Below, piece after piece: positions 3,446 to 58,564 of a stretch of 64,000 nucleotides of DNA. Within the stretch, counting starts at the first letter, position 1. Every line of letters begins with the position of its first letter. Source of the stretch: Escherichia phage vB_EcoM_LNA2. Below the pieces are notes generated by a model that saw nothing but the letters and a program-made list of their open reading frames with translations, was not told the origin of the DNA and ran no database searches. The DNA lies in the sequence record MZ311865.1; one strand, written 5' to 3'. A program made the position numbers and the translations under genes.

Positions 3446-3926
3446 TAAAAAGGTAATGATTCCTAAATTAGGGCTCAAACATTATAATCTTTTAAAGGAC
3501 GTTAAAGGCCCTGATGAAAACATGAAAATCTTAGCTGATTCTATTTGTAAAAATATGAGTCCCGCAGATTTTGATTTTGCATGTCTACACATATTGGAAT
3601 TTAATAACAAACTTAAGTCTGAAGTTGAAAAAGATGGATTCACTTATAAACTAGATGACGTCTATGTATGCCAACGAACAGAATTCCAATTTCAAGGTAA
3701 TACTTTTTATTTTAGACCCCCAGGCAAATTTGAACAATTCGCTACAATCAGTGAAATGCTATCAAATTGCTTAATAAAAGTTAATGACGAAGAGAAAGAA
3801 ATTTCTTTCCTTGAGATGCCTGCTTTTGTAATCAAATGGGCAGAAGACCTTTCGACAACTATTGCTATTCCGGGCCCTAATGGTCCTATTAAGGGTATAG
3901 CAGAAATTATTGGATTGCTTGAATGA
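3393..3926 (+). CDS. 28: baseplate hub distal protein gp28
   Basis: 177 aa, T4 gp28 length; overlaps 3' end of gene 27 as in T4. Confidence 0.8.
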
Positions 3927-16394: not shown

Positions 16395-16727
16395 TCACTT
16401 ATAAAGACACGGAATAGCTTTATAGTGGCATGTTACGAATTTCTGTTTAATTTCTTTAGGTTGTTTAAGTCCCAAAGCCACAAATGGATGTGGAACATTT
16501 CGAATTTGTCCAACTGGTATTGGAGTCAAATCACCGACTTCAACAAAACCTTCAGGAACATCAGGACCTACAGAATGAACTACACATAGTTCAGGAACTT
16601 CACCTTGAACACGTTTACCAATCACAAGTCCTGATTCTGTAACTTCTTCATCACCTGCTTGAGCTGGTTCAGAAACCAGAATGACATATTCACCAACAGC
16701 ACGAATTGGGAGTTGTACTTCAGACAT
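16395..16727 (-). CDS. 31: co-chaperonin gp31 (GroES-like)
   Basis: 110 aa; sequence matches T4 gp31 as I recall it ([34 protein letters not shown]...). Confidence 0.85.
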
Positions 16728-55610: not shown

Positions 55611-55628
55611 AAGCTCCCGAAGGAGCTT
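55611..55628 (-). terminator. UUCG-tetraloop hairpin after gene 39
   Basis: AAGCTCC-cgaa-GGAGCTT on plus strand, overlapping the gene 39 stop. Confidence 0.5.
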
Positions 55629-57444
55629 AGGACATCCATTCTTTACGAAGTTCTGAATCATCACCCATCAACATTTCAAAGAGTTCTTTCCAATTTTCAG
55701 GAAGTTTAACTACGTCGTACACAGGGTTCTGAATCATTTCACGATATTCTGACTTTTCAAGGGAGCCTAATCCCTTGATGTATCGAATACTGTGCTTAGG
55801 CAGTGTATCTTTAACTTCTTCGTACTCAGCCACAGTATAAAACCATTTTTGAGTTTTGCCAATTTGTGCAATAATTACAGGCGTTTTAACAAAGCGAATA
55901 CGTCCTTGTTCAAACAATTCAGGCCAATTACTAAAGAAAGCAAGCAAAGCCGGATAGATACTTCCAAGACCGTCATGATCGGCATCGGTCATAATTGCAA
56001 TATTACGATAGTTCGTATTCTCTGCCTTTTCACCAAGAATAAGACCCGTGATAGCACAGATATCAAAGAGCTCTTTGTTCTTCATCATATCAGCATATGA
56101 CATACCCCAGCTATTCATCACCTTACCACGTAATGGGAATCCACCGTGTAGTTCACGGTCACGAACATCAATGAGATAACCAATTGCCGAATCACCTTCT
56201 GTTAAGAACAATGTCGTATCTGCATCTTTACCGCATTGGTTAGCTTTAATATGCTTATGAACCTTAGCTTTAGTTGCCTTTTTAGCTGCTTTAGTTTCTG
56301 CAGCCTTTTCTGCTGCCAATTTACGAGCTAATGCTGCTTCAACAATAGGCATAATCAAGGCTTCGTTTTTAAGAAGTGCCTGAGCAATTTTCTTAGCATC
56401 TAATTGGATATGATTACGAATATCACCATACGTTGACGTTAAACGTTCTTTAGTCTGAGAATCAAAACGCATGTTGCTCATGTCTCTAATAAACATCAAC
56501 ATTGTGAGACATTCTTTAACACGAGCTTTAGTGACTTCAATACCCTTATATTTCTTTTTAATACCAGGCAAAAGATGTTCGCAGATATCATCCATTACAC
56601 ATTCAACATGATGACCACCATTTTTAGTATGGATGTTATTCACGTAAGTTAAATGACGGAAGCCATCTGGTGATGTTGTGAATGCCATAGAGACTCTATC
56701 GTTTTCTTGAATGATGTTATCTTCGCCAAATTGTTTAGCAAATCGTTTAAAATTACCATCAACCTTTTTACCATTAAATGTGAACTTGATATCAGGATAA
56801 ACGACTGCCAATGTTTGAAGTCGGTCTAAAGTAATATCTAAATAAATTTGAGATAAATTATGCTCTTCAAATGAAGAGAAATCAGGAGTGAAGATTACTT
56901 TAGTGCCTTTACCTTTAGATTTCTTAGAAGACCATGATTTGTTTTCCATTCCGTTTGAACAGTTAACAGTGATTTCATTTTCGCCATCTGACGTGATGCC
57001 TGTAAACAACGTAGAGAAGATATTAGTTAAACTACTCCCGACGCCGTTCATACCACCAGTCTTGCGTTCAGAGTCATCACCAAAGTTACCACCAGCCTTT
57101 GGAATAGTCCAGGCTGCTACAGGCCCAGGAATTTGTTCACCTGTTTGGTCGGTAACTAAACCTTGAGGAATACCACGTCCGTTATCTTCCACTGAGACTT
57201 GATTATTTTTAATTTGCACATCGATTTTATTTGCAAACTTAAATGATGTACGAATAGCTTCATCAACCGAGTTGTCAATAATCTCATCGATTAATTTAAC
57301 CAGACCAGGAACATATTCAACTTGTTGATATTTGCCAAACAAAAAACGCTCATGTGCTTCTTTAGCAGAAGAACCAATATACATACCACTACGTTTCTTA
57401 ATATGTTCTACATCTGACAATACCTTAATTTCATTTTTAATCAT
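55627..57444 (-). CDS. 39: DNA topoisomerase II large subunit gp39 (unsplit 39+60 form)
   Basis: 605-aa single ORF with GHKL ATPase/Toprim-type features; no separate gene 60 and no inserted homing endonuclease. Confidence 0.9.
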   Translation of the reverse strand: MIKNEIKVLSDVEHIKKRSGMYIGSSAKEAHERFLFGKYQQVEYVPGLVKLIDEIIDNSVDEAIRTSFKFANKIDVQIKNNQVSVEDNGRGIPQGLVTDQTGEQIPGPVAAWTIPKAGGNFGDDSERKTGGMNGVGSSLTNIFSTLFTGITSDGENEITVNCSNGMENKSWSSKKSKGKGTKVIFTPDFSSFEEHNLSQIYLDITLDRLQTLAVVYPDIKFTFNGKKVDGNFKRFAKQFGEDNIIQENDRVSMAFTTSPDGFRHLTYVNNIHTKNGGHHVECVMDDICEHLLPGIKKKYKGIEVTKARVKECLTMLMFIRDMSNMRFDSQTKERLTSTYGDIRNHIQLDAKKIAQALLKNEALIMPIVEAALARKLAAEKAAETKAAKKATKAKVHKHIKANQCGKDADTTLFLTEGDSAIGYLIDVRDRELHGGFPLRGKVMNSWGMSYADMMKNKELFDICAITGLILGEKAENTNYRNIAIMTDADHDGLGSIYPALLAFFSNWPELFEQGRIRFVKTPVIIAQIGKTQKWFYTVAEYEEVKDTLPKHSIRYIKGLGSLEKSEYREMIQNPVYDVVKLPENWKELFEMLMGDDSELRKEWMS

Positions 57445-57495
57445 GTTGTCTCCTCGTTATGAAGGTATTCTATCATCCGAAATCTAAAGCAAAAA

Positions 57496-57507
57496 GGGCC
57501 GAAGCCC
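57496..57507 (-). terminator. short UUCG-tetraloop hairpin upstream of gene 39
   Basis: GGGC-cgaa-GCCC on plus strand. Confidence 0.4.
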
Positions 57508-57951
57508 TTATTTAAATTTAATTTTCTGAAGTGCATCAATTGCAGCTAAACGCCCTTGTTCACTTTTAACTGTAATGACCACATCGCCTGATACGATCAC
57601 CGAACCATCAACAAATTCTATAGAGCCTTTTTTGAAATCGACAGCTGTATCTGGTTCCGGAACTTCTTCAAAGAATTTAAATTCTGCACCATAAATCAGA
57701 ATATCACCTTGCATACTAATGATTGTACGTCTAGGTCCATCGGTTTCAGCGGCAATCATTGAAACACCATAACCAATCATCTCTTCTACAATAAAATCTC
57801 TTGATAATAAAACTGTATGCAGAGTAGTGTTAAGACGTTTACCAGTTGTATTAAGAATTCTCAAGAAATTATCTTCTTGACCTTTGATAATACGATATTT
57901 CTTACCAACTTCAAAACCTTTAAAACCTTTAAAAGCCGTATTAAAAGCCAT
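57508..57951 (-). CDS. hypothetical protein
   Basis: 147-aa ORF, TAATTATG junction with the upstream zinc-ribbon ORF. Confidence 0.45.
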   Translation of the reverse strand: MAFNTAFKGFKGFEVGKKYRIIKGQEDNFLRILNTTGKRLNTTLHTVLLSRDFIVEEMIGYGVSMIAAETDGPRRTIISMQGDILIYGAEFKFFEEVPEPDTAVDFKKGSIEFVDGSVIVSGDVVITVKSEQGRLAAIDALQKIKFK

Positions 57952-57953
57952 AA

Positions 57954-58133
57954 TTAACCCTTCTTAAGTAAGTCGTAAAAACCACCGTTCACATGTTTAG
58001 GAGCAGAAACCCGACGAGTAGACAGACGATGACATTCAGGGCAAACATCGTTTTCTCGTTCAGAAATCCTTTTAATTTTTTCATATTCATGACCACAATC
58101 TTCAGATTGACATTTATAGTCGTATAACGGCAT
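57954..58133 (-). CDS. small zinc-ribbon protein (FmdB-like CxxC...CxxC), 59 aa (missed by ORF track)
   Basis: Hand translation: [59 protein letters not shown]; two CxxC pairs; TAATG overlap with the upstream ORF. Confidence 0.55.
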   Translation of the reverse strand: MPLYDYKCQSEDCGHEYEKIKRISERENDVCPECHRLSTRRVSAPKHVNGGFYDLLKKG

Positions 58134-58564
58134 TATTGTTCCTTAAAGTGAGCTTTCAACATTTGATACAAAGACCATGCCTGGTCGTTATTTTCGATAG
58201 TAATCGTCATCACCGGAAATTCAGACAATTCATCAAGTTCACCAGAATCTTGCTCTTCAGACTCTTGATACGGATTTCCAACTTCGTCAAAGAACTCTGC
58301 TTCATTCGTGGAGAGCCAGATAAAGTTTTCATCAAGGATGTCACCGCCTGTTGCGTATCCAACCATGCCAGTAGATGTCACAATTTTAGTAGGACGACCA
58401 AGATGGTCAACATCTAATATTTTAAATGGTTCCATGCCAAGACGTCGTGCGTAAATCCCATTATCAGTGTGGTCTTTAATAAACTCTTCTTGGGCACGTT
58501 TATCTTTAAATTGGTACCATGAGTTAACGCGGAATTTATTAGCCATTAGTAAGTTTCCTTCCAA
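58133..58564 (-). CDS. hypothetical acidic protein
   Basis: 143-aa ORF. Confidence 0.45.

Follow-up and report, generated by a model that had tools for sequence, protein, structure and literature searches.

A short open reading frame (ORF) set tightly among the early genes of a T-even phage raises the question of whether it is a gene at all and, if so, what its small zinc-ribbon product acts upon. The ORF lies in a stretch of 64,000 nucleotides from Escherichia phage vB_EcoM_LNA2 (sequence record MZ311865.1), here called the window, which represents an RB69-like T-even phage (Mosigvirus). An earlier note, made from the letters of the window alone, had taken the ORF to encode an unannotated, FmdB-like zinc ribbon and had hinted at a regulatory role. 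The ORF is an already known and named gene of T4-like phages, 39.2, with a published function for its orthologue. We put at roughly 85% the probability that it is gene 39.2 of an RB69-like T-even phage and that its zinc-ribbon product modulates host GroEL, as judged by orthology with T4 Gp39.2 (NwgI).

Gene 39.2 and its public annotation

The 59-amino-acid (aa) ORF runs from ATG to TAA with exactly the translation quoted in the earlier note, on the minus strand, which had gone unstated there (Table 1). The two tight junctions to which attention had been drawn, TAATG and TAATTATG, both read on that strand: the first is the overlap of the goF stop with the 39.2 start (58135 to 58131), and the second leads from the 39.2 stop to the next start codon (57956 to 57949). 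Because the stop and start codons overlap, an arrangement that appears typical of translationally coupled T-even early genes, we infer that 39.2 is co-transcribed and translationally coupled with goF. The cef, goF, 39.2, goF-like, and topoisomerase II large-subunit genes would form an early-region block on the minus strand that is transcribed together, in which translation of 39.2 is probably coupled to that of goF. In a promoter scan, sigma-70-like sites numbered 10, with 8.1 to be expected, so that the scan was uninformative.

Table 1. Features of the window that bear on gene 39.2, in order of position
Feature	Position	Strand	Details
Gene 31, phage GroES-like co-chaperonin gp31	16398..16727	(-)	Cpn10 model, 29.7 bits against a cut-off of 21.1
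Topoisomerase II large subunit, RB69-type "60plus39"	55627..57444	(-)	Single fused ORF of 605 aa
goF-like gene (RB69ORF005c homologue)	57508..57951	(-)	147 aa; goF paralogue
Start codon of the goF-like gene, downstream neighbour	57949..57951	(-)	2 nt past the 39.2 stop
Gene 39.2 CDS	57954..58133	(-)	ATG to TAA, 59 aa plus stop; orthologue of T4 39.2 (NwgI); read directly and by identity to RB69
C-terminal tail, residues 44 to 59 (APKHVNGGFYDLLKKG)	57957..58004	(-)	A-P-x-x-V-x-G-G-F-Y-D motif conserved
Zinc-ribbon core, residues 1 to 43	58005..58133	(-)	Candidate zinc ligands C8, C13, C31, and C34; Pfam and TIGR models and AlphaFold2
goF stop codon, upstream neighbour	58133..58135	(-)	Base 58133 shared with the 39.2 start (TAATG)
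Shine-Dalgarno-like AAGGA	58140..58144	(-)	6 nt before the 39.2 ATG, within the 3' end of goF; minus-strand text TTTAAGGAACAATAATG

Although the ORF had been supposed to be unannotated, public databases do have entries for it: the RB69 record has carried the same ORF as gene 39.2 since 2003, described as "conserved hypothetical protein, similar to T4" (AAP75908.1). Many relatives label it too, as "FmdB-like transcriptional regulator" or "zinc ribbon domain protein," and a few records omit it, T4 GT7 (KJ477686) being one example. The window product agrees with RB69 gp39.2 at every residue (100% identity), and the two genes differ at 2 synonymous nucleotides. The 1.3-kb stretch around the ORF matched 405 T-even phage records, the best of them at 96 to 98% identity and RB69 among these. 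Gene order on the one strand is the same in the window and in RB69 (cef, goF, 39.2, RB69ORF005c, 60plus39), and in T4 it is cef, goF, 39.2, 39.1, 39. The ORF thus stands where the Gp39.2/NwgI group stands, past goF and, with no change of strand, ahead of the gene for the large subunit of topoisomerase II, and its product shows high full-length identity to the T4 and RB69 proteins (81 to 82% over 57 residues with the 58-aa Gp39.2 of T4 GT7). T4 Gp39.2 has the same four Cys positions, the C-terminal APKHVNGGFYDLLK tail, and a locus between goF and the gene or genes preceding the topoisomerase II large subunit. It differs in its length (58 aa against 59 aa here), in 10 substitutions and an extra Lys near the C terminus of the window protein, and in its downstream neighbour, which is 39.1 in T4 and a goF-like gene in the window.

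The T4 RefSeq genome (NC_000866, 5702 to 5839) annotates 39.2 as 45 aa only, and UniProt lists this short form as an "uncharacterized 5.1 kDa protein." Compared with T4 GT7 (2501 to 2677 of the extracted stretch), RB69, and the window, the NC_000866 gene (3703 to 3840 of the extracted stretch) carries an additional T behind codon 43, and the resulting frameshift leads to an early stop; it also has a few substitutions (E25G, D29G). Since the 58-aa form is the conserved one, the 45-aa RefSeq gene and its UniProt entry look as if they stemmed from an early mistake in sequencing or from a lesion in the strain. The practical point for annotation is that T4 RefSeq still lists a 39.2 truncated by a single base.

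The FmdB-family zinc ribbon and the regulator label

The 39.2 product belongs to the FmdB zinc-ribbon family, as the earlier note had proposed. Pfam PF09723 (Zn_ribbon_8) matched residues 1 to 42 at 49.3 bits (curated cut-off, 34.4; E = 5e-13) and NCBIfam TIGR02605 (FmdB family zinc ribbon protein; CxxC_CxxC_SSSS) matched residues 1 to 44 at 48.0 bits (cut-off, 31.3), both above their curated cut-offs. The N terminus, MPLYDYKC, fits the pattern M-P-x-Y-x-Y-x-C from the initiator Met onward, so that the MP-Y-Y-C start remarked on before is indeed there, and it is nearly invariant across 66 homologues; their alignment shows no variation at M1, C8, or C34 and conservation of at least 90% at P2, Y4, Y6, C31, P45, and G51. 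As to the collection of homologues, a word-indexed search gave 8 close relatives only, and a profile of tblastn-derived homologues gave 104.

Two CxxC pairs had been described, of which the second holds (C31-PE-C34) and the first does not, being C-x4-C (C8-QSED-C13), with 17 residues between C13 and C31. The second ligand of this first knuckle takes the form CxxC in 41 members of the 66-sequence set, CxxH in 10, CxC in 10, and CxxxxC in 3; among 217 small family members sampled, the counts were 146 CxxC, 32 CxxxxC, 19 CxC, and 14 CxxH. With 32 of the 217 sampled members sharing it, the form seen here is a recurrent minority variant, within the family range but away from the textbook pattern of two CxxC motifs some 17 residues apart, and because the second ligand varies in both residue and spacing, the metal site is not uniform among homologues. 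A single zinc ion would be bound through the four ligands C8, C13, C31, and C34, to judge from how these residues are conserved and from the AlphaFold2 model (66-sequence alignment; mean pLDDT, 80; pTM, 0.52), in which there are four short strands (residues 3 to 8, 16 to 20, 28 to 30, and 37 to 40; block pLDDT, 85 to 87), as a zinc ribbon leads one to expect. The 59-aa product is pictured as a single four-ligand zinc ribbon that would be followed by a short flexible tail with GGFYD.

A single-sequence search of the PDB with the 39.2 protein returned bL31 alone (E = 0.3 to 0.5, noise). Profile matches from the 66-sequence alignment to the C2H2 arrays Aart and ZNF568 were rejected, since the profile bridges two adjacent fingers, a motif-level artefact and not homology. 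Neither the sequence nor the profile searches of the PDB detected an FmdB-family member with a solved structure, and fold searches returned generic zinc ribbons only, at noise level. Because no solved family member was found and the profile matches are artefactual, the fold says nothing on function beyond "small zinc ribbon." Among the top fold matches was RbpA, the actinobacterial RNA-polymerase-binding protein, which is alike in having a small zinc-ribbon-like barrel and then a partner-binding tail.

Bacterial FmdB-family proteins share with the 39.2 product the M-P-x-Y-x-Y-x-C start, the two Cys knuckles, and the A-P...G-G-aromatic stretch that comes after them, but many have a long, low-complexity, Ser/Gly-rich C-terminal extension that the 39.2 product lacks, and the C-x4-C of its first knuckle is a minority form. 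Most members of TIGR02605 are described as having a degenerate, low-complexity, often Ser-rich C-terminal region that falls outside the model. Such a Ser-rich region, typical of the family and not defining for it, is absent from 39.2, whose tail is 16 residues long and well conserved.

The earlier note had held that small zinc ribbons of phage early regions are often regulators; on the reading that the database label implies, Gp39.2 would bind DNA, or RNA polymerase or a sigma factor, and alter early or middle phage transcription or that of the host. The regulator label goes back to an old, untested suggestion made for the methylotroph FmdB, given in the TIGR02605 description. The Pfam and NCBIfam models gave no match to a DNA-binding family, and the 39.2 product has no recognisable DNA- or RNA-polymerase-binding domain and no significant fold similarity to one, its fold matches being at noise level and equally including the zinc ribbons of ribosomal proteins, MCM, and aRF1. 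Literature searches gave nothing that tests FmdB-like regulation, nor a tested function for any bacterial FmdB-family member, and the sole experimental data on an orthologue (PMC5153855, PMC4396842) point to GroEL. With neither computational nor literature support found for it, we regard a role in transcription as very unlikely. For the 39.2 protein, "FmdB-like transcriptional regulator," a widespread automatic label, probably misleads, and "GroEL modulator Gp39.2/NwgI" would be a better one.

GroEL as the probable target and the C-terminal tail

Modulation of GroEL, the reading that we prefer, draws on what is reported of the orthologues. In the work of Ang and Georgopoulos (2012; Genetics 190:989; "NwgI"), the selection is said to have first recovered RB69 39.2, the same protein as is encoded here, the homologues from T4, RB43, and RB49 reportedly acted alike, and overproduction of 39.2 was reportedly lethal. 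According to PMC5153855, the T4 39.2 peptide shifts GroEL toward the open conformation, to which its co-chaperones bind, and phage T4 deleted for 39.2 is blocked on specific groEL mutant hosts; PMC4396842 summarises the effect of T4 Gp39.2 on GroEL likewise. Suppression of groEL/groES alleles also belongs to the activity reported for the Gp39.2/NwgI group. By orthology, Gp39.2 of the window probably shifts host GroEL to an open conformation that accepts GroES or the phage co-chaperonin gp31, and this shift would safeguard the folding of GroEL-dependent phage proteins, for example the major capsid protein, in hosts with a suboptimal chaperonin.

The window carries gene 31, so the phage encodes a GroES replacement as well as the putative GroEL modulator 39.2. 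Its gp31 is about 95% identical to T4 gp31, and gp31 is the functional partner of the GroEL state reportedly favoured by Gp39.2. GroES and gp31 (Cpn10) would resemble Gp39.2 in having the same host machine, GroEL, as their target; they differ in forming a heptameric beta-barrel lid, whereas Gp39.2 is a monomer-sized zinc ribbon with no sequence or fold relationship to them. For the window this matters little, the gene having been named in RB69 since 2003 and the function of its orthologue published in 2012. The wider interest lies in how a zinc ribbon of 59 residues would bias the conformational cycle of GroEL and whether the bacterial FmdB family does likewise.

The tail of the phage proteins has the consensus A-P-(K/R)-x-V-(N/H)-G-G-F-Y-D, in which P45, G51, and D54 are invariant among 10 diverse phage homologues (P45 and G51 at least 90% conserved in the 66 sequences), and AlphaFold2 models it at lower confidence (pLDDT, 63 to 71). 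A related G-x-G-aromatic motif (FKGSGWY, LKGGGWY) occurs in 114 of 218 sampled family members, bacterial ones included. Because about half of the sampled family has it, bacteria included, the tail motif is ancestral to the family and no phage invention; being common in bacterial members, it is therefore not a phage-specific adaptation to GroEL.

The zinc ribbon might, we suggest tentatively, serve as a rigid scaffold, leaving contact with GroEL to the hydrophobic and conserved tail (GGFYDLL), which perhaps sits in the same groove of the apical domain as the GroES mobile loop; we grade this proposal far below the overall explanation. The GroES mobile loop has the sequence AGGIVL, which the 39.2 tail, NGGFYDLL, loosely resembles, and we take this as a lead only. 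We know of no physical structure of the Gp39.2-GroEL complex. A broader proposal, that the G-G-aromatic tail of the phage Gp39.2 clade and of about half of the bacterial FmdB sample is a GroES-mobile-loop-like peptide docking on the GroEL apical domain, and that FmdB proteins are chaperonin modulators in general, strikes us as unlikely. If it were true, chaperonin modulation would be the function of a very large bacterial family, FmdB, whose members are routinely given the wrong label of "regulatory protein," and Gp39.2 would be the sole member with a known phenotype.

Neighbouring genes and distribution among phages

The goF-like gene and goF (58133 to 58546) both match PHROG 622 (E = 3e-19 and 9.7e-39) and goF PHROGs, and since the former is a goF paralogue, 39.2 has a GoF-type gene on each side; in T4 the place of one of them is taken by 39.1, which is unrelated. 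LSm-like folds have recently been predicted for GoF-type proteins (PMC12152347). The packing of 39.2 between goF and its paralogue, with stop and start codons overlapping or nearly so, would suit a zinc-ribbon adaptor for the product of a neighbour, either the GoF-type proteins to both sides or the large subunit of topoisomerase II, the GroEL phenotype then being secondary; in Moon, ECD7, Miller, RB69, and T4, moreover, the topoisomerase large-subunit gene follows 39.2 within about 0.1 to 1.5 kb. Collinearity is general among T4-like genomes, however, so synteny is weak evidence, and the link to goF and the topoisomerase is not kept beyond the closest T-even relatives because the contexts differ: 39.2 of ECD7 comes directly after dexA with no adjoining goF, the homologue of phage Muldoon adjoins a MazG-like gene, and that of an Ackermannviridae phage is near a gp33-like gene. 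As synteny breaks in this way, the adaptor role was rejected as highly improbable.

Conservation across T4-like phages had been named earlier as a check on the ORF, and tblastn with the 39.2 protein matched 955 phage records, 912 of them at a query coverage of at least 80%. Homologues at 35 to 57% identity occur in Moonvirus, Krischvirus, Pseudotevenvirus, Muldoonvirus, and Nanhuvirus and, as an 81-aa form, in Ackermannviridae. Codon by codon, the gene differs from that of T4 GT7 by 19 synonymous and 10 non-synonymous changes (Nei-Gojobori dN, 0.108; dS, 1.59; ratio, about 0.07), and 39.2 is a real, conserved gene under strong purifying selection. Many ORFs of 30 to 60 aa do arise by chance on both strands of this AT-rich phage DNA, but the chance that 39.2 is one of them is next to nil and is ruled out by the conservation data, given the codon differences and dN/dS just cited, a frame intact in 912 of the 955 matching records, the Pfam match (E = 5e-13), a good ribosome-binding site before the gene, and the published genetic phenotype of the T4 39.2 deletion (PMC5153855).

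The 81-aa zinc-ribbon form is common in Ackermannviridae. In Serratia phage IME250 of that family (1501 to 1704 of the extracted stretch), it lies near a gp33-like gene, and is not annotated as a member of the zinc-ribbon family. A VRGPQSAPD insertion precedes its GF(K)D motif, and its tail is longer.

Several minor points concern the neighbours themselves. The ORF list enters goF as 58133 to 58564 on the minus strand, with a TTG start and 143 aa; an ATG six codons on (58546) gives 137 aa, overlaps the cef stop as TAATG, and agrees with the RB69 annotation. In RB69, goF is one codon shorter because the CAA of the window is TAA there (RB69 TAATAATG against CAATAATG in the window). T4 has a topoisomerase split into genes 39 and 60, with a mobA insertion and a gene-60 translational bypass, and the window is without all three. 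Between the goF-like and topoisomerase genes, at 57494 to 57509, there is a hairpin with a perfect 6-bp GC-rich stem and a UUCG loop (AAGGGCUUCGGCCCUU, minus strand), with a T-rich run after it; it resembles a terminator or a hairpin that stabilises RNA, and related records annotate a "terminator" in its neighbourhood. In T4 GT7, 39.1 (2680 to 2940 of the extracted stretch) encodes 86 aa beginning MKYINRSIAALVLAVSLIGC, an N terminus resembling the signal peptide and lipobox of a lipoprotein, and the RefSeq version of 39.1 in NC_000866 (3399 to 3596 of the extracted stretch) has 65 aa, with its start further in than in GT7.
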